Shown piece by piece: positions 13,433-29,627 of a stretch of DNA of 64,000 nt; within the stretch, counting starts at the first letter, position 1, and each line of letters opens with the position of its first letter. This DNA is from Pseudomonadota bacterium (GTDB taxonomy: Bacteria; Bdellovibrionota_G; JALEGL01; DATDPG01). The notes under the pieces were generated by a model that was given only the letters and a program-made list of their open reading frames with translations, was not told the DNA's origin and ran no database searches. Location: NCBI GenBank assembly GCA_043809315.1, contig JAZDDX010000020.1, forward strand, positions 1 to 64,000, read 5' to 3'. A program made the position numbers and the translations under genes.

Positions 13433-15422
13433 GATCGGCGTCTTTATTTGTCACTGCGGTGAGAATATCGGACGGACGGTCGACTGCTCGAGGGTCGCTG
13501 AAGCGGTCAAGAACCTTCCCGGCGTCAAGATTTCGACCGACTACAAGTACGTCTGCTCCGACCCTGGACAGAACATGATCCGGCAGGCCGTGCGCGAGAA
13601 CAAACTAGACGGCGTGGTCGTGGCCGCCTGTTCACCGGCGATGCATGAGCCGACATTTCGCCGAGCGGTTGCGAACGAAGGTCTCAATCCGTTTCGCTGC
13701 GAGATGGTGAACCTGCGCGAGCAGTGTTCCTGGGTGCACGACGACCGCGAAGCCGCCACGGCGAAGGCGATCGATCTCGTCCGGATGATGGTCGAGAAGG
13801 TCAAGCGGAACCGGGATCTCTATCCGATTATGGTTCCGATGACCCGGCGAGCGCTCGTGGTGGGGGGCGGAATCGCCGGAATCCAGGCGGCCCTTGACCT
13901 CGCCAACAGCGGGCATTCGGTGGTGCTTGTGGAAAAAGACCCGTCGATCGGCGGGCATATGAGCCAGCTCTCCGAGACGTTCCCGACACTCGATTGCTCG
14001 CAGTGCATCCTGACGCCCCGGATGGTCGAGGTGGCACAGCATCCGTTGATCACCCTTCACACCTATTCCGAAGTCGAGAAGGTCGAAGGGTTCATCGGGA
14101 ATTTCAAAGTCACGATCCGCAAGAAAGCCCGCTACGTCGACATGGCGAAGTGCAACGGATGCGGAACCTGCATGCAGAAATGTCCCCAGAAAAAAATCCC
14201 CTCCACGTTCGACGCCGGTTTGGGGATGCGCGCCGCGATCTACGTCCCGTTCCCACAGGCGGTGCCGAACAAACCGGTCATCGACCGCGAGAACTGCACC
14301 TACTTCAAGAACGGGAAGTGCGGAGTCTGTGCCAAGCTTTGCGGTCCGAAAGCCGTGGATTTCACACAGGTGGACGAGGTCGTGACTGAGAATGTCGGCG
14401 CGGTGGTCCTGGCGACCGGGTATTCCCTCTACGACATCGGCGTAAACGAAGGTCCGGTCCGCGGATACCCGGAATACGGCGGCGGGAAGATCAAAGATGT
14501 GATCGACGGTCTCCAATTCGAGCGCCTCGCCTCGGCCTCGGGGCCGACCCAGGGGGAGATCCGCCGGCCCTCGGACGGGAAGATCCCGAAGACGATCGTT
14601 TTCCTTCAGTGCATCGGAAGCCGCGATTCCTCGAAAGGGATCGAGTACTGCTCGAAGATCTGCTGCATGTACACGGCGAAGCACGCCATCCTCTACAAAC
14701 ACAAAGTACACGACGGGAAGGCGATCGTTTTCTACATGGACGTCCGCGCCCCGGGGAAAGGGTACGACGAGTTCGTCCGAAGGGCCGTCGAGGAGGACGA
14801 GGTGCTTTACCTCCGCGGCCGCGTTTCACGAATGTACGAAGACAAGGGACAAATCGTCGTCTCCGGCGTCGACACGCTCTCCGCCCGAACGATGGAGATC
14901 CGCGCCGACCTCGTCGTCCTGGCGACCGCAACCCGGGCGCAGCCCAACGCCAACAAGTTGGCCCAGTTCTTCGGCGTGGGGTACGACGGCCATCAATTCT
15001 ATTCGGAAGCTCACCCGAAACTTCGCCCGGTCGAAACCGCCGCCGCCGGAATCTTCCTGGCGGGGGCCTGCCAGGGACCGAAGGACATCCCGGAATCGGT
15101 GGCCCAGGCGAGCGCCACGGCATCGAAAGTGAACGTCCTCTTCTCGAAAGAACTTCTCGAGCGCGAACCGATCGTGGCGCATGTGAACGAATCCACTTGC
15201 ATCGCCTGCCTCGCCTGCAAAGAAGTCTGCCCCTATAACGCCGTAGAGGTATTCGAAATCAAGGACAAGCAGGGGCGGCTCTTGAAGCGCGTGTCGCGTG
15301 TGAACACCGGCGTATGCAACGGCTGCGGCACCTGCATCGCAACCTGTCCGTCGAAATCGCTGGAGCTGGACGGCTACACGGACGAACAGATCCATGCCCA
15401 GATCGGAGCGTTGGTCGCATGA
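13425..15422 (+). CDS. hdrA: Heterodisulfide reductase subunit A, full-length
   Basis: IGVFICHCG, VAACSP, NLREQC, GGGIAG, TFPTLDCSQC, inserted and C-terminal 2x[4Fe-4S] motifs, CIGSRD, CSKICC, GPKDIP. Confidence 0.96.
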   Translation: MSRIGVFICHCGENIGRTVDCSRVAEAVKNLPGVKISTDYKYVCSDPGQNMIRQAVRENKLDGVVVAACSPAMHEPTFRRAVANEGLNPFRCEMVNLREQCSWVHDDREAATAKAIDLVRMMVEKVKRNRDLYPIMVPMTRRALVVGGGIAGIQAALDLANSGHSVVLVEKDPSIGGHMSQLSETFPTLDCSQCILTPRMVEVAQHPLITLHTYSEVEKVEGFIGNFKVTIRKKARYVDMAKCNGCGTCMQKCPQKKIPSTFDAGLGMRAAIYVPFPQAVPNKPVIDRENCTYFKNGKCGVCAKLCGPKAVDFTQVDEVVTENVGAVVLATGYSLYDIGVNEGPVRGYPEYGGGKIKDVIDGLQFERLASASGPTQGEIRRPSDGKIPKTIVFLQCIGSRDSSKGIEYCSKICCMYTAKHAILYKHKVHDGKAIVFYMDVRAPGKGYDEFVRRAVEEDEVLYLRGRVSRMYEDKGQIVVSGVDTLSARTMEIRADLVVLATATRAQPNANKLAQFFGVGYDGHQFYSEAHPKLRPVETAAAGIFLAGACQGPKDIPESVAQASATASKVNVLFSKELLEREPIVAHVNESTCIACLACKEVCPYNAVEVFEIKDKQGRLLKRVSRVNTGVCNGCGTCIATCPSKSLELDGYTDEQIHAQIGALVA

Positions 15423-16630
15423 CGGAGAAAAGCTGGGAGCCGAAGATCGCCGCCTTTGTCTGCCGCTGGTGCACGTACGCAGGGGCCGACCTCGCGGGAA
15501 CGAGCCGCCTCAAGTACCCGCCGCAGATCCGGATCATCAAGCTCCCCTGCACGGGACGGATCGACGCTCTCTTTATCCTTCGCGCCTTCGCGATGGGGGC
15601 CGACGGGGTACTGGTCTCCGGCTGCCATCCAGGGGATTGCCACTACACTTCCGGGAACTTCGTGGCGCGGCGACGCTTCGCTCTTCTGCATGAGCTTCTG
15701 GAGTTCATCGGACTGGACATGAACCGCCTCCACTTCTCCTGGGTCTCGGCCGCGGAAGGAGCGAAGTTCGTCGATGTCGTCAGTAAGGTGACGGAAGCGA
15801 TCCGCTCCGCCGGTCCCTTCCCCGGATTCCGGCCGAAGAAGGGCGGGAAGGCCTCTGTCTCTGAACAGGTTTCGGATAAGTTGGATCTCCTCGAACCGGC
15901 CGGTTTCTCCGAGATGAAGGAGGATCTGACGTCGAACAAAGTCCGCGCAATCCTCGGCACCCAACCCGGAAGAAGAACACAAAGTCTTCGGCTGTTTTGG
16001 GCAAGTGACCCGGAGAAACTCGGTCTCATGCGGCGAAGTCACAGGAACATGCCCTCTCTCTCCACCTACCTCGTCCGAAAACTCCGCGAGGAGCCGGAAG
16101 GGGTGTTCGGAATCGCCGCCGGACCGCTGGATCGAGAGGCGTTGGAAAAACTTACCGCTGAATCCCAGGTCGACCCGGCCCGGATCAAGGTTTACGCGCA
16201 GGACAGAGAACTCCCTCCTTGGAAGGGGAAAGAGGCAAATGCGTATGCTGTCCCCGGATTAGATCGCCCCGTAAGTGAACGATGGGAATTCTGGACCGGC
16301 GTCTTCGGGAACTGCCTCCGCTGTTACGCCTGCCGGGAGGGGTGCCCGCTCTGCTCCTGTATCCGTTGTGTGGCCGACAAAACACGCCCCCGCTGGATCG
16401 ACTCTTCCCCCACGCCGGCTGGAAACTGGCTCTGGAACGTAACCAGAGCGTTTCACTTGGGAGGCCGTTGCGTGGAGTGCGGAACGTGCACCGAGGCCTG
16501 CCCGGTCGGGATCCCTCTCGGGGCGTTGAGCGCTCATTTGAACCGCGCGGTCGAGAGACTGTTCGGGAAGTCCGAGCGCTCTCCACTCGTAACCTTTAAG
16601 CCGGACGACAAGGCGCCGTTTATTCTATGA
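15419..16630 (+). CDS. flxCD: FlxD-FlxC fusion (MvhD-like [2Fe-2S] domain plus 4Fe-4S dicluster domain)
   Basis: N-terminal FVCRWCTYAGAD...CTGR...GCHPGDCHY...WVSAAEG; C-terminal CLRCYACREGCPLCSC..C and GRCVECGTCTEACP. Start moved to the ATGA overlap at 15419. Confidence 0.85.
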   Translation: MTEKSWEPKIAAFVCRWCTYAGADLAGTSRLKYPPQIRIIKLPCTGRIDALFILRAFAMGADGVLVSGCHPGDCHYTSGNFVARRRFALLHELLEFIGLDMNRLHFSWVSAAEGAKFVDVVSKVTEAIRSAGPFPGFRPKKGGKASVSEQVSDKLDLLEPAGFSEMKEDLTSNKVRAILGTQPGRRTQSLRLFWASDPEKLGLMRRSHRNMPSLSTYLVRKLREEPEGVFGIAAGPLDREALEKLTAESQVDPARIKVYAQDRELPPWKGKEANAYAVPGLDRPVSERWEFWTGVFGNCLRCYACREGCPLCSCIRCVADKTRPRWIDSSPTPAGNWLWNVTRAFHLGGRCVECGTCTEACPVGIPLGALSAHLNRAVERLFGKSERSPLVTFKPDDKAPFIL

Positions 16631-17625
16631 CCTGGACTCGTGACGACCTGAAAGTTTGGACGAGAGCGCTCTTGAGAACTCATCGTGTGGTGGCTCCCGT
16701 TGCGGGACCGAACGGCTATGTTTTCGCGGAGGTGACCGATCCGGAGACGATCGCGTGGGATTACACGCGGACCTCCCTCTCTCCTCGGGAGTGGCTGATC
16801 CCCCGTTCCGAACCTCTTTTCGATTACGATCTCGCGTCGAACCCTCCGAAGCTTTCGGAGCCGGCGATCGAAGCGAAACCGACCGTGATCTTGTTGCTCC
16901 GCTCGTGCGATGTAGCGGGACTCCGGGCGCTGGATGCCGTGATGCGCTGGGATTACACCGACGAGGGATTCGAGGCGAAACGCGCCGCCACGATCTTCGT
17001 CTCGCTCGGATGCAATCAGCCCGCATCCAAAGAGGCCTGCTTTTGCGAGTCTGCTGGGATCGATCCGCGGTTTGCCTCCGCAACCGACGTGGCGGTTGAA
17101 ATTGCGGAGAACGGGTACCGTGTTTACGCCGTCACCGAAACGGGGAAGCAACTGCTTGCCTCGGCCCCTAAGACTCTCTCTGAGGGAAGACCCGAAGCAA
17201 AACCGATCGGCACCGTAAAGGTGGAGGTCGAAAAGGCGCGTTCCTGGCTCAAGGATCACTTCGATGACCCGTTCTGGCAGGAGATCTCAGAGGCCTGCCT
17301 CGGGTGCGGCTCTTGCGCCTTCCTCTGCCCCAGTTGCCACTGTTTCGACGTCGTGGACGAGGGGAACTGGAAGCAGGGCTCGCGCATGCGCAATTGGGAC
17401 TCCTGCGCCTTCGGGCACTTTACCGCGCACGCCACCGGACACAACCCCCGCCCGCGGCAGTCGAACCGCTACCGACAGCGGATCTATCATAAGTTCCTTT
17501 ATTACCCGGAAAAGTTCGGCCCCCTCCTCTGCACCGGTTGCGGGCGCTGCATCGACAACTGCCCGGCCGGGATGGATTTGATCAAAGTGTTGAACGAGGC
17601 GGCCGCGAAGGGAGCTCCGAAATGA
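16627..17625 (+). CDS. flxB: FlxB (AsrA/HydB-like 4Fe-4S protein)
   Basis: RSCD, CFC, CLGCGSCAFLCPSCHCF, RNWDSC, RYRQRIYHKF, CTGCGRCIDNCP. Confidence 0.85.
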   Translation: MTWTRDDLKVWTRALLRTHRVVAPVAGPNGYVFAEVTDPETIAWDYTRTSLSPREWLIPRSEPLFDYDLASNPPKLSEPAIEAKPTVILLLRSCDVAGLRALDAVMRWDYTDEGFEAKRAATIFVSLGCNQPASKEACFCESAGIDPRFASATDVAVEIAENGYRVYAVTETGKQLLASAPKTLSEGRPEAKPIGTVKVEVEKARSWLKDHFDDPFWQEISEACLGCGSCAFLCPSCHCFDVVDEGNWKQGSRMRNWDSCAFGHFTAHATGHNPRPRQSNRYRQRIYHKFLYYPEKFGPLLCTGCGRCIDNCPAGMDLIKVLNEAAAKGAPK

Positions 17626-18458
17626 GCCTCTACACCCCCCATCTCATGGAGATCACGGAAGCCCGTCGGGAGACGCCGGACGTCAAAACGTTCAAGCTCA
17701 AGTTCGTGGATCCCTCCGCGGCCGAACGTTTCTCGTTCCAAGCGGGGCAATTCGGTCTCTATTCCGCCTTCGGCGAAGGGGAGTCGACGTTCTGCATCGC
17801 TTCCCCTCCGACCTGGAAAGATCACATCGAGTGCACGTTTCGAAAGATCGGAAAAGTGACGGAGGGGCTCTTCAATAAAGAGCCGGGGGATGTGATCGGT
17901 TTCCGGGGCCCGTATGGGAACCGTTTTCCGCTGGAGGAGTTCGAGAAGAAAGATCTTCTCTTCGTGGTTGGCGGGATCGCGTTGCCCCCCCTTCGCTGCC
18001 TGATCTGGAACATTCTCGACGAGCGCAAGCGGTTCGGAGCGGTTCGGATTCTCTACGGCGCCCGCTCGGTGGGAGATCTGGTCTACAAAGACGAACTGAA
18101 AGCCTGGAGCGAACGTCCCGATATGGAGTTAGTGACCACCGTCGATCCCGGCGGAGAAACACCCGACTGGAAGGGGAAGGTCGGGTTTGTTCCGAAGATC
18201 CTAGACGAATGGGCCCCCTCCTCGAAAAACAGTTTAGCGTTCGTCTGCGGCCCGCCGATCATGATCAAACTTTCGATGCCGGTGTTGGAAAAACTCGGTT
18301 TCTCGCACGAGCGGATCTACACGACGCTCGAGAATCGGATGAAATGCGGCGTGGGGAAGTGCGGCCGCTGCAACATCGGCGGGACCTACGTCTGCAAGGA
18401 AGGGCCCGTCTTCACATTCGCCGAGATGTCGAAGCTCCCGATTTCGAGTGATTACTAG
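17622..18458 (+). CDS. flxA: FlxA, FAD/NAD(P)-binding subunit with a [2Fe-2S] cluster (AsrB/PyrK-like)
   Basis: GQF, GES, RGPYGN, GGIALPP, YGAR, CGPPIM, LENRMKCGVGKCGRC...CKEGPVF. Start moved to the ATGA overlap. Confidence 0.88.
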   Translation: MSLYTPHLMEITEARRETPDVKTFKLKFVDPSAAERFSFQAGQFGLYSAFGEGESTFCIASPPTWKDHIECTFRKIGKVTEGLFNKEPGDVIGFRGPYGNRFPLEEFEKKDLLFVVGGIALPPLRCLIWNILDERKRFGAVRILYGARSVGDLVYKDELKAWSERPDMELVTTVDPGGETPDWKGKVGFVPKILDEWAPSSKNSLAFVCGPPIMIKLSMPVLEKLGFSHERIYTTLENRMKCGVGKCGRCNIGGTYVCKEGPVFTFAEMSKLPISSDY

Positions 18459-18850
18459 GTACCGCAGCCGCAGGGGCCGAATCCGCAGTTGTTGTACTGA
18501 ACGCTGATCCGCGCGAGCTTCAAAAGCTTGCTGATCTCTTTCGGTTCCCCCATCGACCAACCGAGGAGCTCCATCCACGATTCGACATCTGTATCCGGTG
18601 CCGAACTGGCTGCCGACATCAACGCCCTTTCGACATCCCCCAAATCACACCCGACCTGACAGGTCGAAAAACAACCGCTCGAGATCTTCACTCGGGTCGC
18701 CTCCAACTGCCGGGGCAGCTCCGGTCCGAACGGGATCCCGCGGCCCCTCAATTCCTCGTGCCACGCCCCCAAAACGGCATAACGCAGACCGAATTTCTGC
18801 AAAACCGAGAATTCTTGCGTTTGGGAAGGGGTCGGAGCGGTTTCGGCCAT
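18455..18850 (-). CDS. Hypothetical Cys-rich protein, last gene of the mvh operon
   Basis: AGGAGG RBS; GCFSTCQVGC and C-terminal NNCGFGPCGCGT. Confidence 0.7.
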   Translation of the reverse strand: MAETAPTPSQTQEFSVLQKFGLRYAVLGAWHEELRGRGIPFGPELPRQLEATRVKISSGCFSTCQVGCDLGDVERALMSAASSAPDTDVESWMELLGWSMGEPKEISKLLKLARISVQYNNCGFGPCGCGT

Positions 18851-18880
18851 GACATGCCTCCTGAAAAATGTTCAGGCACT

Positions 18881-19387
18881 CTATACAGATTCGGCCCGAA
18901 CGAAACAAGGGGGGCGCGCGATCTTTTCGACTTCGGCGCCGATCTCCCGCGCATACTCCGGAAACCGCTGTTCGAGAGCTTCCGTCATCCGCTCGGAGAA
19001 CGTCAAATTGTCCTCCACCTCCACGGCAAAGATCGAAATCTCCTCCTCCCGCGGGATCTTCTGACCCATTCGGCGCCCCAACTCGAGCGCGGTCGCGAAG
19101 TTCGTGTCGTGAACGTTCCGGAGGTTCATCGTCTCGCGGAGATCGGTCCCGCCGAAACGGTACCAATCTCCCGGTTTACCGCCGGCCCCTTTGATGGAAT
19201 CCAACACGATCAGGCGATCGTACCCTTCCACAATATCCAAGATGTTGAGACCGCCAACCGAACATTCTTCCATGACCGTGAAGTCGGGAAGGTTTCCGAG
19301 CTGCTCTTTCAGATATCGCGCCAGCCGGACACCGACGGCGTCATCCGAAAGGATCGGATTTCCCATTCCCAGAAGAAGTGTTTTCAA
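18881..19387 (-). CDS. Hydrogenase maturation protease for MvhA
   Basis: LLLGMGNPILSDDAVG, LIVLDS, VHD; TTG start after GAGG. Confidence 0.9.
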   Translation of the reverse strand: MKTLLLGMGNPILSDDAVGVRLARYLKEQLGNLPDFTVMEECSVGGLNILDIVEGYDRLIVLDSIKGAGGKPGDWYRFGGTDLRETMNLRNVHDTNFATALELGRRMGQKIPREEEISIFAVEVEDNLTFSERMTEALEQRFPEYAREIGAEVEKIARPPCFVRAESV

Positions 19388-19394
19388 TGGACCT

Positions 19395-20861
19395 CTAAGG
19401 GCGCTTGAACTCCCAACGGAGCTCGTCTTCCTTGTAGATCCGAACATGGAGCGGCATCTGTCCAGGCAGCGAATGCGTCGCGCAGCTGTAGCAGGGGTCG
19501 AACGACCGGAACGCCATCTCCACCATATTTAAGATCCCCTGCGTCGGCTCCACCCCCGGCTTGATGAATGCAGCGGCGGCCTTCTTGGTCACCATGTGGA
19601 TCGGGGCGTTGTTGTTGGTCGTCCCGACAATCAGGTTCGCGCTCGTGCAGATCCCGTTCTTGTCGCAGGTATAGTGGTGCGTCAGCGTCCCGCGCATCGC
19701 CTCCACGATCCCGACCCCCTCCCCCGTGATCTGTTTCGGCACCACCCGGTAGTTCTTCCCGGTGATCTCAGGGTCGTCGCAATATCTCTGGAGCATCTCG
19801 GCGTTCTGGACCATTTCCACCAGCCGGGCCCAATGAGAGGCCATCAGGGCTTGGCACGGTTTCTTCCCCAACGTTTTGTACATCTCCTCGAACTTTTCCT
19901 GGGCCTTCGGCGTCGCCATCCGGTCCGCCACGTTGAGCCGCGCGAGCGGTGTAGCCATATAGATGCTGGAGTTGGGGCCTTCCTCGAACCCGTTCCACCC
20001 CCGTTTCTTCAGGTACGGGAACTTCAGGTACGACCACGGTTCGACATGCTCCGCCACGTACTGGACGTACTCCTCCGGCGAGTACTTGTAGAGCTCCTTC
20101 CCTTCGCAATCCACGACGCGAACCTTACCGTCGTAAAAGTTCGGGGCGTTGTTCTCGTCTACCAACCCCATATTTTGAACCTGAAGATTGTAGGGTCCCT
20201 TGAGGATCAGCTCGACGTAGGCGGGGTTCCCCAAGACCACCTTCTTGAAGAGATCGATTGAAAAAAGTGTGAAGTCATAGAGCTCCTTCACTCGCGGCCG
20301 AATCTCTTCCTCCAGCTCTTTTTTTGTGATCCCCTTGGAGACACCCCCCGGAAGACACCAGACAAGGTGCGTAAACCGCCCGCCGATGACTTTTTGGATC
20401 TCTTGTGCCTGAGCTCGGGCCTTGATCACCGCACCGCCGATCTCGAGCCCCACCTTGGCCACCACCCCGAGGATGTTTCGCATCGCAGGATCGGAGTCCG
20501 GCCCGCAGACGAAATCGGGGGCCGCGAGAGCGTAGAAATGGGCGATGTGACTGTGGATGTAGTGCGCGTGGTAATACATATCGCGCAGTTTGTGGGCCAG
20601 CGGCGGGCATTCGTTTCCGAAACAACCGTCCACCGCCTTGGCGCTCGCCATGTGATGGCTGGCCGGACAGACACCGCAGATTCTCGTCACGATCCTCGGA
20701 AGTTCCTCGATCGGCCTTCCCACGACGAACCGCTCGAACCCCCTCAACTCCGGGATCTGGAAATAGGTGTCTTGGACGGCCCCGTTGTCGTCCAGGAAGA
20801 TGTCGATCTTCCCGTGTCCTTCGAGGCGTGTGATCGGATCGATGGAAATGGTTCGGGTCAT
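19395..20861 (-). CDS. mvhA: Group 3c [NiFe]-hydrogenase large subunit
   Basis: TRLEGH, ELRGFE, L1 RICGVCPASH, HFYALAAPDFV, EAMRGTL, L2 FDPCYSCATH plus a cleavable C-terminal extension; next to mvhG and mvhD. Confidence 0.93.
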   Translation of the reverse strand: MTRTISIDPITRLEGHGKIDIFLDDNGAVQDTYFQIPELRGFERFVVGRPIEELPRIVTRICGVCPASHHMASAKAVDGCFGNECPPLAHKLRDMYYHAHYIHSHIAHFYALAAPDFVCGPDSDPAMRNILGVVAKVGLEIGGAVIKARAQAQEIQKVIGGRFTHLVWCLPGGVSKGITKKELEEEIRPRVKELYDFTLFSIDLFKKVVLGNPAYVELILKGPYNLQVQNMGLVDENNAPNFYDGKVRVVDCEGKELYKYSPEEYVQYVAEHVEPWSYLKFPYLKKRGWNGFEEGPNSSIYMATPLARLNVADRMATPKAQEKFEEMYKTLGKKPCQALMASHWARLVEMVQNAEMLQRYCDDPEITGKNYRVVPKQITGEGVGIVEAMRGTLTHHYTCDKNGICTSANLIVGTTNNNAPIHMVTKKAAAAFIKPGVEPTQGILNMVEMAFRSFDPCYSCATHSLPGQMPLHVRIYKEDELRWEFKRP

Positions 20862-21826
20862 CGTTGGTGTCTCCTTTGGAGAAGGGAACCTGGCAGTGCG
20901 AAACGGTAGGCGATTCCGGCAAAATCAGGAATATCATCCAGGATCCGTTCGATCTCTTTGGGATCCTTACTGTCGATGATCGAGGCGACCGCCGAAAGGA
21001 GCTTCGCCCCTTGATCTTTGACATTCGGAAGGGGCCCGTAACACCCGCGACACGGCATCCCGCTGTCGGGGCAGCGCACGCCGCAACCGGAGCGGGTCGC
21101 GGAACCGGCGCAGAGGATCCCCTGCTCCATCAGACACTTGTCGAAATCCTGGATGATCTGCCAGGGGCGGTAGAACTTCCTCACCTTCTTCTCGGCCTTC
21201 TCCCGCTTGCAGTCCTCGCAGACCGATCGCTCCGAAGCTCCGACAACGCTCCCTTTGGGAGGAAGCGCCCCCTTCACCACGGCCAGAAGGACCGCTTTCA
21301 CCTGAGCAGGAGCCGGCGGGCAGCCGGGGAGGTAGTAGTCGACCGGAACCACCTGGTCGAGTTTATAAACCCGTTGGTAGAAATTCGGAATCTCCAGCTC
21401 GTACCCGTTCACTTTTGAGTTCGGTTTCGGAACGATCCGGTTCCCCGGCTCGATCGACGCGTTGGTGAGATACGCCGTTTCTAGGATCTCCTCTTTCGTG
21501 GTTGTGTTCGCAAGCCCGGGGATCCCGCCCAGATGGGCGCACGATCCGAAGGCCACCAGTACCTTGCTCTTTTTGCGGAGGAGCTTCGCAACATGCTCGT
21601 TCTCGCTGTTCCGGACCGCTCCGTTGAAGAGCGTGAGATCCAGTTCACCGTCGATCATCGCTTCGACATCCTTGTATTTCCCATCGACCGCGATCGGCCA
21701 GAGACGTATGTCCGCGACCTCGGCCACGGTCAGAATGAACTCATTCGTGTCCAGTATGGCAACGTCGCAGCCCCCGCAACCGGCCCCCCAATAAATCGCG
21801 ATTTGAAGCTTTTTCGTGGTCGCCAT
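20858..21826 (-). CDS. mvhG: Group 3c [NiFe]-hydrogenase small subunit
   Basis: GCGGCD, FGSCA, PGCPP, VCEDC, CLMEQGILC, CGVRCP, PCRGCYGP; no Tat signal. Confidence 0.92.
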   Translation of the reverse strand: MATTKKLQIAIYWGAGCGGCDVAILDTNEFILTVAEVADIRLWPIAVDGKYKDVEAMIDGELDLTLFNGAVRNSENEHVAKLLRKKSKVLVAFGSCAHLGGIPGLANTTTKEEILETAYLTNASIEPGNRIVPKPNSKVNGYELEIPNFYQRVYKLDQVVPVDYYLPGCPPAPAQVKAVLLAVVKGALPPKGSVVGASERSVCEDCKREKAEKKVRKFYRPWQIIQDFDKCLMEQGILCAGSATRSGCGVRCPDSGMPCRGCYGPLPNVKDQGAKLLSAVASIIDSKDPKEIERILDDIPDFAGIAYRFALPGSLLQRRHQR

Positions 21827-21829
21827 CGT

Positions 21830-22264
21830 CTACCTCCCACTCAAGTCGGCTTGAAGGTTTGCCTGAATCTGCGACGGCCCCAGGCGGCGCAGCTTTTCGG
21901 TCATGTCCGCCACGATGTCGGCGAACCGTTGCCCTTCGCTGGCACTCACCCATTCGAGGCGGACCCGGTCCTCCTCGATGCCGTACCAACGCATCACCCG
22001 CTTGAGGAGTTCGTATCGGCGCATCGCCTTGTAGTTCCCCTCCACGTAGTGACAGTCGCCGGGATGGCACCCGCAGATCAGGACGCCGTCCGCGCCCCCT
22101 TCGAGCGCTTTCATCACAAAACTCGGATCGATTCTCGCGGAGCACATCACGCGGATGATCCGGATGTTGGGCGGGTACTTGATCCGGCTGGTCCCCGCGA
22201 GATCGGCGCCAGTATAGGAGCACCAGTTGCAGAGAAAACCGACGATTCGAGGTTCATAGGCCAT
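21830..22264 (-). CDS. mvhD: MvhD [2Fe-2S] subunit
   Basis: FLCNWCSYTGAD, VMCSAR, GCHPGDCHY, WVSASEG. Confidence 0.95.
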   Translation of the reverse strand: MAYEPRIVGFLCNWCSYTGADLAGTSRIKYPPNIRIIRVMCSARIDPSFVMKALEGGADGVLICGCHPGDCHYVEGNYKAMRRYELLKRVMRWYGIEEDRVRLEWVSASEGQRFADIVADMTEKLRRLGPSQIQANLQADLSGR

Positions 22265-23973
22265 CAGAGCACCCCCTCAATCTGCGTGAAGATCTGTGCA
22301 TCGGTGAAGTGTCTCCCTTTGATCGCTCCCGAAGGGCAACTGGCGACACATGCGCCGCACGCCTTGCAGGTCGCGCTGTTCACCTTGCTCTTCTTCTTGA
22401 CGTCGTCGTAGTCGATCGCGAAAAACGGGCAGAGCTCGTTGCACATCCGGCAGCCCGAACAGAAATCTTCCTGGACCTCGGCGTAAACCGCGTCCACCCA
22501 AATCTTTCCTTGGGCGATCTTGCCCAGAATCCGGGCGGCCGCCGCGCGGGCTTGGCCTACCGAGTCAGGGATGTCCTTCGGGGACTGGCAAGCCCCGGCG
22601 ATAAAAACTCCCTCGGTCGTCGTGGCGACCGGATCAAGCTTCGGATGGCTTTCGATGAACCATCCGTCCTTGTCCCGACTGATGTTGACGAGCTGCGCGA
22701 CATGCTCGGAATCCTCGCGCGGCTCCATCCCGACCATCAACACCACCATGTCGGCCGGGATCTCGATATGTTCCCCGGAGAGATCCTCATCCACCGTGAT
22801 CAACATGCTGCAACCGTCCTTCGGCCCCGCTGTGCGGATCTCCGCCTCCTTGTTCTTGCGATACATCAGGAACATCGTCTTGATCTCGGCGCTCTTCCGG
22901 TAGAAGTCCTCGCATCCTTTCCCGAACGCATGCATGTCGATATAGAGGTCGGTGACGTACGCCGACGGGATCGCCGACTTGATTTCGTGGGCGTACTTCA
23001 AGGCCGTCATGCAACAGACCCGCGAGCAGTACGGATGGTAGTGCTCGCTGCGGCTCCCGACACAGTGGATGATCGAGACGTATTGGGGGAGCTTCCCCGA
23101 TTTCGTCCGGACCTCCCCTTTCCGGAGCATCGCCTCGAGTTCAAAGGAGGTGATGACGTCCGGAAAGAATCCGTATCCGTACGCCCGGACCCGGGAGGCG
23201 TCGAACTCCTTGTAACCGGTGCAAACGACAACCGAGCCGACGTCGAACTGTTTCTCGCTCCCGTTTCCGTTCCCGACGGTTGCCTTGAAGTTCCCCACGA
23301 ACCCTTCCAAAGCTTTGAGTTGCGATTCCAACAGCACGGTGATCTTCGGATGGTGCGTTGCGCGATAAACTCTCTCGTAGATGATATCGCGCGCTGAATC
23401 GAGGTACGGCGCCGTCAGATCATCCCTCGCCACATTCCCACCCAACTGTTTCGCACGTTCCACGAGATAGACCGGTTGTTCGGCATCCGCCAACTCCAGG
23501 GCTGCTGAAAGGCCAGCAATTCCGCCCCCCAGAACAAGTGTGGCGGGACACATCGGAACGGAGCGTTTCTCCAGCGGCTCGTGATGCGCAACGCGCAGAA
23601 CAGCGGCTCGTGTGAGCGCCTTGGCCTTTTCCGTCGCCGCGATCGGGTCGTCGTGAACCCAGCTGCACTGCTCTCGAATGTTGGCGCATTCAAGAAAGTA
23701 CGGGTTAATCCCCCCCGCCTCCAACGCTTTCCGGAATGTTCCTTCGTGCATCCTGGGACTACACGCCGCCACCACCACACGGTTGAGGCCATTCTCCTTG
23801 ATGTTGTGCGCAATCATTTCTTGCCCCGGATTGGAGCACATGTACTTGTACGCCCGCGTCACCGCCACCCCGGGCATCGCCGAGGTCATCTTGGCCACGG
23901 CATCACAGTCGATCACGTTGGCAATGTTGGTGCCGCAGTTGCAGATGAACACGCCGATCTTTTTCTCTTCCAT
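22264..23973 (-). CDS. hdrA: HdrA-like flavoprotein (HdrA''): N-terminal cluster domain and C-terminal ferredoxin present, inserted ferredoxin absent
   Basis: IGVFICNCG, VAACSP, NIREQC, GGGIAG, CVGSR, CSRVCC, SPKDIP, CSGCRMC..CP, CKACGAC..CP. GGAGG before ATG 23973; alternative GTG at 23988. Confidence 0.9.
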   Translation of the reverse strand: MEEKKIGVFICNCGTNIANVIDCDAVAKMTSAMPGVAVTRAYKYMCSNPGQEMIAHNIKENGLNRVVVAACSPRMHEGTFRKALEAGGINPYFLECANIREQCSWVHDDPIAATEKAKALTRAAVLRVAHHEPLEKRSVPMCPATLVLGGGIAGLSAALELADAEQPVYLVERAKQLGGNVARDDLTAPYLDSARDIIYERVYRATHHPKITVLLESQLKALEGFVGNFKATVGNGNGSEKQFDVGSVVVCTGYKEFDASRVRAYGYGFFPDVITSFELEAMLRKGEVRTKSGKLPQYVSIIHCVGSRSEHYHPYCSRVCCMTALKYAHEIKSAIPSAYVTDLYIDMHAFGKGCEDFYRKSAEIKTMFLMYRKNKEAEIRTAGPKDGCSMLITVDEDLSGEHIEIPADMVVLMVGMEPREDSEHVAQLVNISRDKDGWFIESHPKLDPVATTTEGVFIAGACQSPKDIPDSVGQARAAAARILGKIAQGKIWVDAVYAEVQEDFCSGCRMCNELCPFFAIDYDDVKKKSKVNSATCKACGACVASCPSGAIKGRHFTDAQIFTQIEGVL

Positions 23974-23984
23974 ACGTTCCTCCG

Positions 23985-25142
23985 TCACGCCGCCATCTTG
24001 ACCGCTGCCATCGCTTCAGGGACTTTCACTTTTCCACGCTCGATCGCCACCTCCTGCAGACGCGCAAAATACATCCCAAGCGGCCGGTACATGAGGTGCG
24101 ACCACTTTCCGAACGGTACAACAAGAAGCAGCATCGGCATGTCCGCCATCATGTGCGCAACATAAGCAAAGTTCGCGGCTGTCGTCAGCCCGGCGCGATG
24201 AAGGATGTGCTGGACGATCCCCGTCACCGTCATGGCAAGGAGAAGAATCAAAAATACCCAGTCGCTCTGATGGGAGTGTTTCAGGTACGTCCACTCTTTT
24301 CGTAGCCGCCCCCGCATCGCCCAGATCACGGTGAACAGAAGACCTGCCGAGGCAAAATAGCCGAAGGCATGAACGCGCCAGTCGATCTCCGGGCCCGCTT
24401 GCAGCTCATGCAGGAAGAACATGATCAGGGAGAACATCGTCACATAGCTCGCGACCAGGATTAGATGGAGCACCCACGGTTGTTTCCGTTCGCACTGCGA
24501 ATACCTTTTTTGCGTGAGAAAATGGAGCGGGAGAAGATAGGCTTGACGCACATAGTCCCAAAGAGGCGGTCGCATCTCCGTGTGCTTCCAGATCGAAAAC
24601 CACCACATTCGAAAACTGTTCGTAAGAAGAATGATGACGAGGAACCCCCCGAGAACCATATCGAACAGATGGACACCACCGGCAGTCAAGAAAGCGTTCG
24701 GGCCGTCGTAGATCGACGGATCTCCCCCTCCCAGGAACAAGCCCCCGAGGAAAAAGCCGATCCCGGTTAGGACCGCCACCAGTAAGATCGCCGTTAACTC
24801 AGCTTTCCAAGAACGGTAGAAGAGTTTGGAGAGCCCCGTGAAGTCGTATTGGCTCGTGAGCCAACGCCGCACGCTCATCATCGTCTCCCCCGGTTCGGCC
24901 CCACGTGGGCACTGGTCGGAACACTCGCCGCAGTAGTAGCAGAGCCACGGTTCCAAGGTGCCGCGCAGCCGTTCTTCCAGGCCCATCTGAAGATACCGCA
25001 TCGACCGGCGGGGGAAGATGAACGCCCCCTCCGAGAACGGGCAGGCCGCACTGCAGTTCCCGCAGTGGTAACATTTGGAAACGTCTTCGGCACCGTACCG
25101 TTCCAAGTCGTCGATCAATCTTGGATTCACCCGCACCGCCAT
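23985..25142 (-). CDS. qmoC: QmoC-like membrane subunit (2x[4Fe-4S] plus a probable heme b transmembrane domain)
   Basis: CYHCGNCSAACP and WLCYYCGECSDQCP, then about six hydrophobic helices containing His, SDW, and PFGKWSHLMYRP. Confidence 0.8.
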   Translation of the reverse strand: MAVRVNPRLIDDLERYGAEDVSKCYHCGNCSAACPFSEGAFIFPRRSMRYLQMGLEERLRGTLEPWLCYYCGECSDQCPRGAEPGETMMSVRRWLTSQYDFTGLSKLFYRSWKAELTAILLVAVLTGIGFFLGGLFLGGGDPSIYDGPNAFLTAGGVHLFDMVLGGFLVIILLTNSFRMWWFSIWKHTEMRPPLWDYVRQAYLLPLHFLTQKRYSQCERKQPWVLHLILVASYVTMFSLIMFFLHELQAGPEIDWRVHAFGYFASAGLLFTVIWAMRGRLRKEWTYLKHSHQSDWVFLILLLAMTVTGIVQHILHRAGLTTAANFAYVAHMMADMPMLLLVVPFGKWSHLMYRPLGMYFARLQEVAIERGKVKVPEAMAAVKMAA

Positions 25143-25164
25143 ATCGCGCCTCCTCTGATTCCCT

Positions 25165-26985
25165 TTAAGCCGCGGACAATCCGCGGGCCCGCTCCTCGAT
25201 TTCAGTCAGCGTCAGCCCCTGCCGGCTGTCGAGACCTTTTCCGCTCACAATCCCGCGCAACACTTTGGCCGCGACCGCGGACGCCTGTGCCACCGTGTCC
25301 GGGATATCCTTCGGCCCCTGGCAAACCCCCGCCACGAAGACCCCCCCCATCTCCGTCGAACTCGGCTCCACGTTATACTCAAGCTCCGTGAACCACCCAT
25401 CTTGGGTCCGGGAGATCTTCAGCATCTTCGCCAACTCCCCGGAATCGGGTTGCGGTTCCAGGCCGACCGAGAGGATCACCATGTCCACCGCGAGCTCCGG
25501 AACCGAGTTGTCCAGGATGTTCTCCCCTTTGAGGAACATCTGCCCATTCTTCTCTTCAACCTTGGCCGACCGGCCCCGCACGACGAACACCCCTTCGTGC
25601 TTGATCCGTTCGAAGAACTCCTCGTACCCTTTCCCGAACGCCCGCATGTCGATGTAATACTCGTAACATTTCGCCTCCGGCAGTTTCTCCCGCACCAGAT
25701 GGGAGAACTTGAGCGAGTACATGCAGCAGACCCGGGAGCAATAAGCGTTGAAGTTCTCGTCCCGCGACCCGACGCAGTGGATGATCGCCACGCTCTTGGG
25801 CCCGGGCCCTGCCGGGTTGAACACCCACTCCTCGACCTTCTTCCGTTTGTTCATCTCTTTCGTCTTCATGACGATCTTCCCGCCGGTCGGGCCGGAAGCA
25901 TTCGTGAGCCGTTCGAATTCCAGGGCGGTCAGGACATTCGGATATTTGCCATATCCGTAACGTTCGATCCGCCGCGCGTCGAACGTTTTGTAGCCGGTGG
26001 CCACGATGATGTTCCCCACCTCCAACTCCACCGTCTCGTCTTTCGCTTCGAGTTGAATGGACCCCTTCATGCATTTCCGCACGCAGGCGCCGCATTTCTT
26101 CCCGTCGCTTAAGACCCAGGTACAGACATCCCCGTCGATGAAATAGGTATTCGGGACGGCTTGAGGGAACGGGATGTAGATCGCCTTCCTCGTGCTGATT
26201 CCCTCATCGAAACCGCTGGCGACAACCACGGGGCAAACCACTGCGCAGTCTCCGCAGGCCACGCAGGTACTGGCGTCCACGCGGGCTGTCTTGCGATCGA
26301 TCTTGACCTTGTATGCTCCCGGCCGGCCGCTTACCTCTTTCACGCGGGAGAGCATCATCAACTCGATGTTCGGATTCTGGCCGACGCTCACCATCTTAGG
26401 GGTCAGGATGCAGGCGGCGCAATCAAGCGTCGGAAAGGTCTTATCGAACTGGGCCATATGCCCGCCAATCGTCTCGCCCTGTTCCACCAGGTAGACTTTG
26501 TACCCGGCGTCTGCAATCTCGATCGCGGCTTGGATCCCGGCAATCCCGCCGCCGATCACCAGCGTGGCCGGATTCACGGGGGAGGTGGCGGGGACCGCCG
26601 CCAGACCGAACGGGACCCCGTAGACGGCGCAGGCCACGACCGCTTTCGCCCGATCGGTGGCGCCTCCCTGCTCCGTGCCTTGTGCACGGAATGAAGCGAG
26701 GCGAACCTGCTCCGGGTCGTTTTCGACCTCGACCATCGCTTTCGTATAGGCCGGTTTGAAGTACCCCGGCATCTCCCCCGCCAGAACGATGGCAGTGAGC
26801 TTGGCCTCGCGAAGGTGCTCCGCGATCTCGGCCGGTTTCAGCTTCACAGTGGCGGATCGGATCTGAACCTCAGCCACACCAGGAAGCTTCCGGACATATT
26901 CGGCAACAGCTTCGTATTCAATCGGATTCTTGGGAATCTCGACGGGTTGAAAGATCACGACACCAATTCTCTTTTGCTCTGGCAT
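25165..26985 (-). CDS. hdrA: HdrA-like flavoprotein (HdrA'): degenerate N-terminal domain, inserted ferredoxin present, no C-terminal ferredoxin
   Basis: GGGIAG, KTFPTLDCAAC, CVACGDC..CP, PFPQAVP, LEFER, CVGSRD, CSRVCC, GPKDIP. Confidence 0.9.
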   Translation of the reverse strand: MPEQKRIGVVIFQPVEIPKNPIEYEAVAEYVRKLPGVAEVQIRSATVKLKPAEIAEHLREAKLTAIVLAGEMPGYFKPAYTKAMVEVENDPEQVRLASFRAQGTEQGGATDRAKAVVACAVYGVPFGLAAVPATSPVNPATLVIGGGIAGIQAAIEIADAGYKVYLVEQGETIGGHMAQFDKTFPTLDCAACILTPKMVSVGQNPNIELMMLSRVKEVSGRPGAYKVKIDRKTARVDASTCVACGDCAVVCPVVVASGFDEGISTRKAIYIPFPQAVPNTYFIDGDVCTWVLSDGKKCGACVRKCMKGSIQLEAKDETVELEVGNIIVATGYKTFDARRIERYGYGKYPNVLTALEFERLTNASGPTGGKIVMKTKEMNKRKKVEEWVFNPAGPGPKSVAIIHCVGSRDENFNAYCSRVCCMYSLKFSHLVREKLPEAKCYEYYIDMRAFGKGYEEFFERIKHEGVFVVRGRSAKVEEKNGQMFLKGENILDNSVPELAVDMVILSVGLEPQPDSGELAKMLKISRTQDGWFTELEYNVEPSSTEMGGVFVAGVCQGPKDIPDTVAQASAVAAKVLRGIVSGKGLDSRQGLTLTEIEERARGLSAA

Positions 26986-27121
26986 CTGTCTCCACCTTCC
27001 CCCGCCCGAAAAGATTTGGAGGCGGGTATTGATTCTCTACGGGAATCTACTTCGTCTACGGTTTCCAGCGAATAATCTAATCCTTCTCAATAACTACTTA
27101 CGTGGGTGGGCTCTGGTAGAT

Positions 27122-27135
27122 ATGATCCCAATCAG
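27122..27135 (-). promoter_or_regulatory. FNR/CRP-family-like site upstream of the hdrA'-qmoC-mvh operon
   Basis: CTGAT-TGGG-ATCAT on the minus strand, followed about 32 bp downstream by the AT-rich TAAGTAGTTATT. Confidence 0.5.
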
Positions 27136-27169
27136 GTTTTTCGGGTGCTGCGCGAGAGATTCCTGTGAT

Positions 27170-27883
27170 CTAGCCCGTCAAGGCGGCAACCACCTGCTGG
27201 ATGTCCGCTCCGCACGAGCTGCAGAAGTGCGTTTCTTCCACGGCCTGTGGTTTGGGCCAATCGCGGTGGCTCGGGATTGGAATCACCTGGCTGCAATACG
27301 GGCAGCGGGATGCCCTCCTCCGTCTTCTGCCCGCAATTACACTCACGGTAATGCCCGCCACCAAGGCGGCCGCCGCCCCGAAGAGGAAATCCACCCGCCG
27401 AGTTACAACCGACAGAGCAATGAAGAGAACCGGCCCGAGTGTCAGGAGAACCCGACCCCATATATTGAGGGAGTTCGCCCCGCGAAGATCAGTTCGAATT
27501 TTAGAAAGATACGTCCGGAAAAACTCGGGGTCGTGAATGTTGTAATGGACCGGCTTTCCTCTGCGGTCCCCCACCCGCGAGTCGCACAGAAGTGCGCCAC
27601 AGGTCGGACAGGCTCTGGCCGAAAACGACCGGATCCCTTTTTTACAAGCGGGGCATCGGAGTGCACGGGACGCCCAAACCGCAAAACCGATCAGAATCAG
27701 GATCGCGACGTTGGACTGTAAACGAAATCCGTGGCGATCGAGAGGGATATGGAACCCGGCGTTTAGAACGATCAACGCACCTGCTACGAGCGCCACGCCG
27801 GTGGAACCAATGACGATCGCTCGTCTTCGGTTCCGTGCGAACTCGGCAGCGATCCGGGGATCGACCGGCTTTCCATCCGACAT
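27170..27883 (-). CDS. Membrane protein with two (2 TM + double CxxC zinc-ribbon) units
   Basis: Two hydrophobic hairpins, followed by CPAC/CPTC and CPYC/CSSC respectively. Confidence 0.7.
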   Translation of the reverse strand: MSDGKPVDPRIAAEFARNRRRAIVIGSTGVALVAGALIVLNAGFHIPLDRHGFRLQSNVAILILIGFAVWASRALRCPACKKGIRSFSARACPTCGALLCDSRVGDRRGKPVHYNIHDPEFFRTYLSKIRTDLRGANSLNIWGRVLLTLGPVLFIALSVVTRRVDFLFGAAAALVAGITVSVIAGRRRRRASRCPYCSQVIPIPSHRDWPKPQAVEETHFCSSCGADIQQVVAALTG

Positions 27884-28031
27884 GCCGATCATCTGTCACC
27901 GACCAAATCAAGGCACCGGGGTGCTGTCAATGAATTCGGAGATGGCCGCGCATTGGATCCGCGGAATTTCTCGAAAGATTCGGACAGGGGAGGTACAAGG
28001 CCTGACGTCTGCTACTAGCCGCCGTCGGAGA

Positions 28032-29192
28032 ATGAAGATGAAAAAACCGGTTTGGTTCGCTCTGTCCCTGTTTGCGTGTGTTCTTCCAACGGGTCTCCTG
28101 GCCGAAGAAACGAACCTGAAATTCGTTTCCAGCAAATTGGAGGCGAAAATCTATGGGTATTTGAAGGTCGACGCGATTTTCGACGATTCGCAGATCTATC
28201 CCGGCAATATCGCGTTATTCGTCAAGAGCCCGACGACCGGAAGCGCCAACCAGTTCAATTTGACGGCAAACCAGACCCGCCTCGGACTTTCGATCAAAGG
28301 GCCGGCGGATCTCCCCCCTCTCGTCAGCGGAACCATCGAGATGGATTTCTACGGGGGCGGGGCCGAGAACATGCCGAATCCGAGACTCTACAAGGGTTAC
28401 GTCGAACTCAAATGGCCTTCCTTCTTGATCTTGGCCGGCCAGGACTGGGATACGTTTTCCCTCCTCTACCCCACCTGTCTGAACTTCGGGTACCTCGGGA
28501 CCGCGGGAGGTCTCCAATACCGAAGGCCTCAACTGCGTGCCATCAAGTCATTCCCGATATCCGCCGGCTCGAAAGTGTCGTTTGCGGCTGCGATCGCCAA
28601 GACAATTCCTTCCAGTCTGGGCGCTGCGGGAACGAGCCGTGAAGCAGGGTGGCCGACGTTGGAAGGAAGGTTGGCGTATGAAAACAAAATCTTCGAGAAT
28701 CTCCCGCTGACGCTCGCGTACTCCGGGCACTTCGGACAGGAACGGGTACGATGGAATCAGGCCCCCGGCGACATCAACTACGCTTCCTGGTCGATGAACG
28801 GCGAACTGCTCGTTCCTCTTGGGACACGTGCGTACTTCAAGGGGGAAGGTTTCTTGGGGTCGAATCTCGACGCTTACTACGGCGGCATCCTCCAAGGGAT
28901 CAACGCGGTCACCGGGCACACCATCAAAGCGATGGGCGGCTGGGGAGAGCTGACGTTCCTCTCCACGGAGAAACTCACATTTCACCTTGGAGCAGGCGTT
29001 GATCATCCGTTTCGGGACAATCTCAACGACGGGGATCGGTCGCAGAACCTCGCTGTCTTCGGAAATGTCTACTACGATTTCCTGAGCTACCTCACGCTCG
29101 CGTTCGAGTACTCCCACTATCGGACTTTCTACAAGAATGGTCCGCACGGCGACGACAACCGTTTCCATACCGCCATGATCCTAAACTTCTGA
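28032..29192 (+). CDS. Outer-membrane porin, DcaP-like
   Basis: Signal peptide, IYGYLKVDAIFD, TRLG, EMDFYG, LAGQDWDTF, RRPQLR, C-terminal Phe. Start moved to the ATG after GGAG. Confidence 0.75.
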   Translation: MKMKKPVWFALSLFACVLPTGLLAEETNLKFVSSKLEAKIYGYLKVDAIFDDSQIYPGNIALFVKSPTTGSANQFNLTANQTRLGLSIKGPADLPPLVSGTIEMDFYGGGAENMPNPRLYKGYVELKWPSFLILAGQDWDTFSLLYPTCLNFGYLGTAGGLQYRRPQLRAIKSFPISAGSKVSFAAAIAKTIPSSLGAAGTSREAGWPTLEGRLAYENKIFENLPLTLAYSGHFGQERVRWNQAPGDINYASWSMNGELLVPLGTRAYFKGEGFLGSNLDAYYGGILQGINAVTGHTIKAMGGWGELTFLSTEKLTFHLGAGVDHPFRDNLNDGDRSQNLAVFGNVYYDFLSYLTLAFEYSHYRTFYKNGPHGDDNRFHTAMILNF

Positions 29193-29627
29193 GAGGATAC
29201 GACGAACGTACTCATCCAAGCGCTGTTGGATGGTTTTCGAGAGGTCCCCTACCCCGATATTTTCCGGCTCGATTCCTAAGATCACGATCTCCGGGATGCG
29301 ATAGCCGAGCTCTTTCGCCAGTTGGATCACTTTCAGAACATCCCCCTCGTGTGTGGAGATCCCATCCAGGCTTTTTTGTGTCGTGACGTCATCCGGATGG
29401 AAAAGAAAATGCTCCCCCGGCTTCTTTCCCGCCCGAACGGCATCGACGATTATGATCATTCCGGTGTCATCCCGGAAGTAGTCGATGAGATTGAGCCCGC
29501 TGTCGGGGAGAAGAACCGCCTCGAAATCGCGATCGAGATTGCGACGAACGACCTCCTCGACGACCCGGAGGCCGATCGAGTCGTCCCCCATCGTCCAGTT
29601 CCCGAGGCCGACAAGATATCGCTTCAC
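29181..29627 (-). CDS. Hydrogenase maturation protease for the group 3b enzyme
   Basis: GLGNWTMGDDSIG, IIVDAV, STHE, LGIEP; GTGA overlap with hydA. Confidence 0.9.
   Translation of the reverse strand: MKRYLVGLGNWTMGDDSIGLRVVEEVVRRNLDRDFEAVLLPDSGLNLIDYFRDDTGMIIIVDAVRAGKKPGEHFLFHPDDVTTQKSLDGISTHEGDVLKVIQLAKELGYRIPEIVILGIEPENIGVGDLSKTIQQRLDEYVRRILSEV

Follow-up and report, generated by a model that had tools for sequence, protein, structure and literature searches.

Which electron acceptor would a [NiFe]-hydrogenase of the Mvh type serve when its operon supplies two HdrA proteins and a QmoC-like membrane subunit and contains no hdrB? The question is raised by a 64,000-nucleotide (nt) stretch of DNA, hereafter the window, from a Pseudomonadota bacterium of the GTDB lineage Bdellovibrionota_G (assembly GCA_043809315.1, contig JAZDDX010000020.1, positions 1 to 64,000). 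At positions 18455–26985, the window's list of open reading frames (ORFs) holds eight tightly packed minus-strand genes, encoding in this order HdrA1, a QmoC-like protein, HdrA2, MvhD, MvhG, MvhA, a hydrogenase maturation endopeptidase and a small Cys-rich protein. An earlier interpretation made without database searches (the sequence-only reading) had named these genes in the same order, and both the coordinates and the family assignments agree with it. The operon is a real eight-gene unit: the Mvh-HdrA-QmoC gene set recurs in 46 of 80 loci compared and is therefore not a chance arrangement. As argued below, its products may form one membrane-anchored complex that passes electrons from H2 to both quinone and ferredoxin.

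Gene content and the paired HdrA subunits

The operon proteins were assigned to families by Pfam and NCBIfam scans. HdrA1 (25165–26985, 606 residues) scores 541 bits against the HdrA model NF040770 and is followed by the QmoC-like iron-sulfur (FeS) and membrane subunit (23985–25142, 385 residues), which matches the NCBIfam qmoC model (NF038018) over model positions 5–359 of 360 with 166.8 bits, below the 300-bit cut-off, and by HdrA2 (22264–23988, 574 residues; 591 bits to NF040770). MvhD, the [2Fe-2S] adaptor between hydrogenase and HdrA (21830–22264, 144 residues), matches PF02662 with an E-value of 2.4e-56 and VhuD with 133.6 bits, under the cut-off of 215; MvhG, the small subunit of the [NiFe]-hydrogenase (20858–21826, 322 residues), matches PF01058 (E 4e-25) and VhuG (211.4 bits, under the cut-off of 450). 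The Mvh/Vhu-like large subunit MvhA (19395–20861, 488 residues; PF00374) is followed by the maturation endopeptidase (18881–19447, 188 residues), which exceeds the TIGR00072 cut-off (89.8 against 47.45 bits) and matches PF01750, and by the Cys-rich protein (18455–18850, 131 residues), which has no Pfam or NCBIfam match.

In operon order, the genes are joined by a 22-nt gap, a 4-nt overlap, a 1-nt overlap (mvhD with hdrA2), a 3-nt gap, a 4-nt overlap, a 53-nt overlap and a 30-nt gap; the overlap of 53 nt between mvhA and the protease gene may instead reflect a later protease start. A promoter and terminator scan of positions 18000–27900 does not set the operon boundaries because it found fewer sites than in shuffled sequence. 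No CCG-domain protein is encoded among the operon genes, as the sequence-only reading had stated for hdrB, and the nearest hdrB belongs to a convergent hdrCBA cluster at a distance of 5 kb.

MvhA carries the nickel-site motifs RICGVC...H (as RICGVCPASHH) and DPCYSCATH, the latter followed by 25 more residues that make up a C-terminal extension. Its best NCBIfam match is VhuA with 364.9 bits, below the 800-bit equivalog cut-off, and the next is HysA with 184 bits. By this best match, at a score below the family cut-off, MvhA would be of the group 3c type. MvhD and an adjoining HdrA partner, a trait of group 3c hydrogenases, are both present.

The gene set includes a pair of HdrA copies, both of which were aligned to a solved methanogen HdrA (PDB 8rvu_a). 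HdrA1 aligns with 438.6 bits (residues 3–583 to 10–576 of 659). It retains the FAD fold, the sequence FPTLDCAAC beside the flavin, an inserted ferredoxin domain with two [4Fe-4S] clusters and the HCVGSRD...CSRVCCM cluster; the cluster cysteines of its N-terminal domain are lost and the C-terminal ferredoxin domain is missing. HdrA2 aligns with 494.2 bits in two stretches (residues 3–238 to 6–242 and 245–573 to 324–652). It retains the N-terminal four-Cys cluster domain, the FAD fold, the CSRVCCM cluster and the C-terminal ferredoxin domain with two [4Fe-4S] clusters; it has no inserted ferredoxin domain, and DSARD replaces DCSMC. Both copies keep the GxGxxG FAD motif. These loss patterns are invariant across several phyla, in 20 orthologues of HdrA1 and 19 of HdrA2. 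The complete domain set, consisting of the N-terminal cluster, FAD, inserted ferredoxin and C-terminal ferredoxin domains, is found in neither copy alone. Judged from the alignments, the two copies complement each other in what they lack relative to methanogen HdrA and together cover its full domain set. The roles of these domains in methanogen HdrA are taken here to be those assigned in published structures. These losses are most simply explained by an obligate heterodimer, in which just one of the homodimer's two electron paths would be reproduced.

The QmoC-like subunit and its distribution

In a profile search with the QmoC alignment, residues 18–97 of the QmoC-like protein matched HdrC chains in the PDB, and its first ~100 residues are HdrC-like, with two [4Fe-4S] clusters; the same search gave HdrC-type chains only and no PDB sequence match to the membrane part. 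Six membrane helices are predicted in the AlphaFold model (mean predicted local distance difference test score, pLDDT, 71.9), and five stand out in a hydropathy scan. The positive-inside pattern fits an N-in topology, in which H226 and H349 would lie near the cytoplasm and H330, H258, H312 and H315 nearer the outer face of the membrane.

For comparison, 15 canonical QmoC proteins from other genomes (430–502 bits to NF038018) were collected and aligned jointly with 85 members of the QmoC-like family, giving 100 sequences. The window protein is 22–27% identical to the canonical ones. The eight FeS cysteines, C217, H226, H330 and H349 are common to all 15 canonical proteins and to 96–100% of the 85 family members; the membrane subunit thus shares three candidate haem-ligating histidines with canonical QmoC. 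In place of H207 (88% of the family), canonical QmoC has a fourth conserved histidine four residues later. Further histidines are conserved in the family and absent from canonical QmoC, namely H158 (88%), H258 (85%), H291 (99%), H312 (95%) and H315 (79%).

The two types are also separated by score and by phylogeny. Among 41 genomes, NF038018 scores are 320–502 bits for canonical QmoC and 136–214 bits for the window's type, and one carrier genome encodes both (446 and 175 bits). In a quick maximum-likelihood tree of the 15 canonical proteins, all but one from a single bacterial class, and the 85 QmoC-like ones, a long branch parts the former from all of the latter (100 in the Shimodaira–Hasegawa-like approximate likelihood ratio test, SH-aLRT). 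The QmoC-like proteins therefore do not nest within canonical Qmo.

Docking was predicted for one pair, HdrA1 with QmoC residues 1–110, which scored 0.66 against 0.00 for the best control; this mark is reached by 58 of 80 solved complexes and by 2 of 110 mismatched pairs. Agreement between runs is 96% of contacts or better, with a partner pLDDT of no less than 79. The predicted interface brings residues 404–411, 445 and 471–495 of HdrA1, the region of the HCVGSRD cluster, against residues 25–33 and 77–81 of QmoC, with its first cluster motif. Because HdrA-HdrC complexes have already been solved, this prediction shows likeness rather than proof, and its score may reflect memory of those complexes.

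A search with the QmoC-like protein yielded 2,202 relatives among 8,000 scored candidates, the best 120 being 60–69% identical to it. With 594 stretches encoding a relative, the type occurs in at least 594 species genomes. The locus counts given here refer to the best 80 of these stretches, compared by tblastn of the eight window proteins and with taxa as given in the record titles; because only these 80 were examined, the Mvh-linked fraction is biased toward close relatives of the query. The order of the window, HdrA1-QmoC-HdrA2-MvhD-G-A, is found in 29 loci, and MvhDGA comes first in 17 (Bacteroidota). Six loci hold HdrA1-QmoC-HdrA2, with MvhA not found despite full flanks, 13 are too short to tell and 15 show other contexts, including QmoA/QmoB-like neighbours. 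It is rare for hdrB to be close by, with 3 of the 80 having one within 9 kb. The phyla represented include Acidobacteriota, Actinomycetota, Bacteroidota, Latescibacterota, Aminicenantes and Chrysiogenota. Similar operons, whose presence in genome databases the sequence-only reading had thought possible, are thus widespread there and are common among uncultured bacteria.

Both loci examined among the six without MvhA (L005, 3855–7082; L012, 3683–7030) have genes for MvhD, an FeS protein, a Fer4_22 protein and an NAD/FAD-binding protein preceding HdrA1-QmoC-HdrA2. Since an NAD(P)H-type module stands here in place of Mvh, the core appears to accept different donor modules, and in this arrangement it would be supplied with electrons from NAD(P)H.

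Four Myxococcota loci (L043, L044, L061 and L062) encode a QmoC-like protein 52–55% identical to the window's and no hydrogenase. It is preceded by genes for a short HdrA-like protein, a long HdrA-like protein and MvhD, with ~30% identity to the window proteins. From its gene order, this is apparently a Qmo-ordered variant outside the sulfate reducers.

Within the organism's own lineage, one of the 4 other genomes searched from its family encodes the window's QmoC type (58% identity), whereas none of 10 from the order and none of 2 from the phylum does. The closest relative of the window protein among the best 80 loci belongs to an Acidobacteriota metagenome-assembled genome (about 66–67% identity). 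This patchy occurrence, together with an identity that is higher to the Acidobacteriota protein than to the same-family copy, suggests that the type may have been acquired laterally.

A link to sulfur metabolism was also looked for. In the organism's own genome (2.42 Mb in 44 contigs, 96% complete), aprA was not found, the best score being 31.9 bits against a cut-off of 641.75, and dsrA and sat had no match. Among 40 other genomes holding the full cluster, aprA is present in one. The description of the operon as one without apr, sat and dsr therefore holds beyond the window, and the cluster occurs independently of Apr and Dsr.

The composition, which the sequence-only reading took as possibly new, has however been published together with the same hypothesis. 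The 'Mvh-Qmo-Hdr' cluster of the Archaeoglobi Ca. Methanoglobus nevadensis and Ca. M. hypatiae is proposed, in the available text of two papers, to mediate electron flow between H2, ferredoxin and menaquinone, and in Ca. M. hypatiae it is expressed at 995–2,431 reads per kilobase per million (RPKM) (10.1101/2022.12.01.518715, 10.1101/2023.09.08.556235). By its stated composition, that cluster holds MvhAGD, two HdrA proteins and an HdrC-QmoC fusion and lacks Apr, Sat and Dsr; the same function is proposed there, without biochemistry. The difference is the host, archaeal methanogens there and a bacterium here. The accessible parts of these papers describe neither the bacterial distribution nor the complementary degeneration of the HdrA copies. 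Outside them, no description of the cluster, bacterial or other, turned up in the accessible passages of papers found by literature searches. In the parts available, PMC3333476, PMC2702500, 10.1101/197269, PMC9324843, PMC11316326 and PMC12142623 treat canonical Qmo or Mvh separately, the 'HdrAC2'-MvhAGD cluster of Dissulfuribacter (PMC13490349) may be related, and the main text of PMC10553843 contains no mention of the term QmoC.

Proposed electron path and competing explanations

The subunit composition suggests the following path. MvhAG, whose catalytic motifs are intact, would oxidise H2 in the cytoplasm and pass electrons through the [2Fe-2S] cluster of MvhD to HdrA2, which retains the N- and C-terminal FeS domains and is the proposed input subunit by analogy with methanogen Mvh-Hdr structures. 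They would then reach the flavin of HdrA1, the only copy with the flavin-adjacent Cys motif and the inserted ferredoxin domain, where the electron pair would be split. One electron would travel uphill through this inserted domain to ferredoxin, and the other downhill through the CSRVCCM cluster to the HdrC-like FeS domain of QmoC, the membrane haem or haems and finally the quinone pool. HdrA1 would be both the bifurcating subunit and the docking site for QmoC, the HdrA1/HdrA2 heterodimer would imitate the HdrA homodimer of methanogens while having just one active path, and HdrBC would be replaced by QmoC. The path would be reversible, with quinol and reduced ferredoxin giving H2 when H2 is low. 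The architecture put forward in the sequence-only reading, with QmoC replacing HdrBC and Mvh attached via MvhD, is borne out by the gene content, the FeS cysteines, the membrane histidines and the tree; the function then ascribed to it, from H2 to quinone plus ferredoxin, keeps its conditional form. That the operon encodes one membrane-anchored complex in which H2 oxidation is bifurcated to quinone and ferredoxin is, in our judgement, the best-supported proposal, with an even chance of being right.

Several observations weigh against it. Exact alignment with canonical QmoC is limited to three of the membrane histidines. At E-values up to 10, the membrane part (residues 99–385) has no Pfam match to NarI/Nitrate_red_gam (PF02665) and two chance-level matches to domains of unknown function, and the AlphaFold model has no PDB fold match at E ≤ 0.001. 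Because neither Pfam nor the PDB folds gave a match, the case for haem binding is made by the conserved histidines and the distant homology to QmoC. Menaquinone ring synthesis was also not found in the organism's own genome: PF02621 (MqnA/D) and MenD have no match, MenB reaches 135 bits against a cut-off of 342.7 and MenG/UbiE at best 48 bits against 158, and a MenA-like prenyltransferase with an N-terminal PAS domain falls below its cut-offs. Among the 40 other carriers, neither PF02621 nor MenB was detected in 7. The complete hdrCBA set 5 kb away means that another acceptor for Mvh exists in the genome. Finally, sequence does not distinguish bifurcation from simple electron transfer.

As regards quinone supply, there is evidence on the other side. 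CydA of cytochrome bd scores 594 bits in the genome, which also encodes ALAD for tetrapyrroles and holds two complex I clusters whose NuoF, NuoD and NuoL exceed their cut-offs; cytochrome bd, the complex I clusters and the PAS-fused prenyltransferase are located at C42:32-1303, C42:13546-14838, C11:95307-102391 and C21:259-7019 of this genome (G000). PF02621 is found in 29 and MenB in 6 of the other 40 carriers, and at least one menaquinone marker in 33. Since cytochrome bd and complex I are present and most carriers have a menaquinone marker, a quinone pool is likely in this organism as well. The mismatch suggests quinone users without a recognisable menaquinone pathway, which might depend on scavenging or on an uncharted route.

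A plain H2:quinone oxidoreductase, in which all electrons pass through the HdrA FeS chain and QmoC and ferredoxin is uninvolved, would account for the loss of the flavin-adjacent Cys motif and the inserted ferredoxin domain in HdrA2. The potential drop from H2 to menaquinone is, moreover, large enough to need no coupling. Yet the inserted domain of HdrA1 with its two [4Fe-4S] clusters and the DCAAC motif are invariant in the 20 orthologues and correspond to the region of the low-potential branch in methanogen HdrA, and two flavoproteins would make an expensive wire. Such a non-bifurcating enzyme is considered unlikely.

The same enzyme might instead run in reverse, confurcating electrons from menaquinol and reduced ferredoxin to H2 during fermentation or low-H2 syntrophy. 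Canonical Qmo and HdrE-type subunits are thought, in the available parts of the literature, to carry electrons from quinol into the cytoplasm; a nearby 2-oxoacid:ferredoxin oxidoreductase yields reduced ferredoxin, and many carriers are anaerobic Bacteroidales. The accessible text of the Archaeoglobi papers, by contrast, favours H2 uptake (10.1101/2022.12.01.518715, 10.1101/2023.09.08.556235), and cytochrome bd and complex I in the organism's own genome fit H2 as a respiratory donor. Direction is not readable from the genes, and a reversed physiological role appears improbable.

If the membrane domain did not use quinone, it could pass electrons across or within the membrane to periplasmic cytochromes or to an uncharacterised lipid carrier. 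The undetected markers of menaquinone ring synthesis, the five histidines conserved in the family and absent from canonical QmoC, and the failure to match NarI or any PDB fold would all be accommodated by this. Quinone-dependent enzymes are nevertheless present in the genome, a menaquinone marker is carried by most other holders of the cluster, and a cytochrome c gene is not part of the conserved cluster; a function away from quinone is thus rather remote.

MvhADG could also serve the neighbouring soluble HdrCBA, with HdrA1-QmoC-HdrA2 as a separate Qmo-like complex that merely shares the operon. On the plus strand, hdrC (12087–12620), hdrB with two CCG domains (12617–13432) and a full-length hdrA (13425–15422, 796 bits to the HdrA2 model) indeed lie within reach, and 3 of the 80 other loci have hdrB within 9 kb. 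This cluster is however convergent with the operon and comes with donor genes of its own, also on the plus strand, for an MvhD-FeS fusion (15314–16630), a HydB/AsrA-like FeS protein (16627–17625) and a HydG/AsrB-like NAD(P)H-binding protein (17538–18458). No hdrB is near in 77 of the 80 loci, mvhD overlaps hdrA2 by one base, and the genome encodes only two CCG-domain proteins, the convergent hdrB product and one on another contig. This division of the operon is judged highly improbable.

A canonical sulfur-metabolism Qmo with AprAB encoded elsewhere, to which the full-length homology to QmoC might point, is close to refuted by the absence of detectable aprA, dsrA and sat, the rarity of aprA among carriers, the score under the qmoC cut-off, the split of the canonical set at SH-aLRT 100 and the carrier that holds both types.

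Surrounding genes, related complexes and significance

The genes flanking the bifurcation candidate are themselves largely redox genes. From its gene content, the cluster at 12087–18458 looks like a Flx-type NAD(P)H-dependent Hdr, in a genome without detected dsrA. On the other side of the operon lies a group-3b-like (sulfhydrogenase) HydBGDA [NiFe]-hydrogenase with its own maturation protease (29181–33586, minus strand), followed by a HypB-like GTPase (33996–34661, plus strand) and the two subunits of a 2-oxoacid:ferredoxin oxidoreductase (POR_N/PFOR_II and a thiamine pyrophosphate-binding domain; 34951–37400, minus strand). The last enzyme, encoded 8 kb from the operon, is a possible producer or consumer of the operon's ferredoxin. 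On these assignments, the window is a redox island that encodes, next to one another, an Hdr linked to NAD(P)H, a QmoC complex linked to H2, a hydrogenase linked to NAD(P) and a ferredoxin enzyme. Between the two hydrogenase clusters are an ORF for a zinc-ribbon protein (27170–27892, minus strand) and one of 493 residues without a Pfam match (27711–29192, plus strand); since they overlap, at most one may be real.

The Cys-rich protein that ends the operon belongs to a family with 16 homologues besides itself, whose alignment shows five invariant cysteines, in SSGCFSxCxVGCDL and a C-terminal CxC. Its tblastn matches lie near the cluster in 4 of the 80 loci (L023, L025 with two copies, L048 and L069), and in L025 and L048 the gene directly follows that of the protease. 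The protein is possibly a metal- or cluster-binding accessory.

With MvhADG-HdrABC of methanogens (PDB 5ODC; Vhu/Hdr 8RVU, 9SW2), the operon shares the Mvh-type hydrogenase, the MvhD adaptor, the HdrA cluster motifs (438–494 bits to 8rvu_a) and an HdrC-like domain docking on HdrA, which is predicted here. Unlike that complex, the operon contains no HdrB with its noncubane-cluster site, and it has two complementary HdrA paralogues instead of a homodimer. Its HdrC is fused to a six-helix membrane domain, and the acceptor is presumably quinone rather than heterodisulfide. QmoABC of sulfate reducers and sulfur oxidisers likewise combines two HdrA-related flavoproteins with a QmoC-type FeS/membrane subunit, and the literature, as far as available, has long held proposals that it bifurcates or confurcates with menaquinone. 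Apart from the divergence of its QmoC, which falls under the family cut-off and on a separate long branch, the window operon differs from QmoABC in that it has no linkage to aprBA, MvhD is a separate gene, the flavoproteins closely match methanogen HdrA and the gene order is another.

In FlxABCD-HdrABC, the NADH-dependent Hdr of Desulfovibrio said to have been described by Ramos et al. in 2015, HdrA is reportedly coupled to its donor module through an MvhD-type adaptor. A comparable NAD(P)H module with hdrCBA adjoins the window operon, and such a module replaces Mvh in L005 and L012; FlxABCD-HdrABC itself is soluble, has HdrBC as its high-potential branch and includes no hydrogenase. EtfABCX / FixABCX set a precedent for quinone in this role, since they perform flavin-based bifurcation with NADH as the donor, quinone as the exergonic high-potential acceptor and reduction of ferredoxin. 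Their proteins are unrelated to those of the operon, and the donor is NADH there and would be H2 here.

By gene content, the window operon is a bacterial case of a cluster and an idea already published for archaea, and the gain from the window alone is modest. Worth keeping are the two HdrA copies that complement each other, the conserved histidines beyond those of canonical QmoC, the donor modules that appear exchangeable, the presence of quinone users where menaquinone synthesis was not found, and the five-Cys terminal protein. A broader view, held tentatively and with somewhat more doubt than belief, is that HdrA1-QmoC-HdrA2 could be a widespread modular core for quinone-linked bifurcation, with interchangeable donors attached via MvhD and, in an obligate HdrA heterodimer, a single active bifurcating flavin, and could constitute a major unrecognised route from H2 to ferredoxin in soil and sediment bacteria with the quinone pool as electron sink, operating here without self-made menaquinone.

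If the proposed bifurcation to quinone and ferredoxin is true, the operon encodes a hydrogenase whose downhill branch is the membrane quinone pool, and bacteria could reduce ferredoxin with H2 independently of heterodisulfide chemistry. The operon would also offer an assayable H2-donor model for the long-standing question of Qmo bifurcation or confurcation with menaquinone. Given that this QmoC type occurs in so many species genomes and is usually Mvh-linked in the loci compared, its biochemistry would bear on how hydrogen is cycled in soils, peat, sediments and anaerobic digesters.

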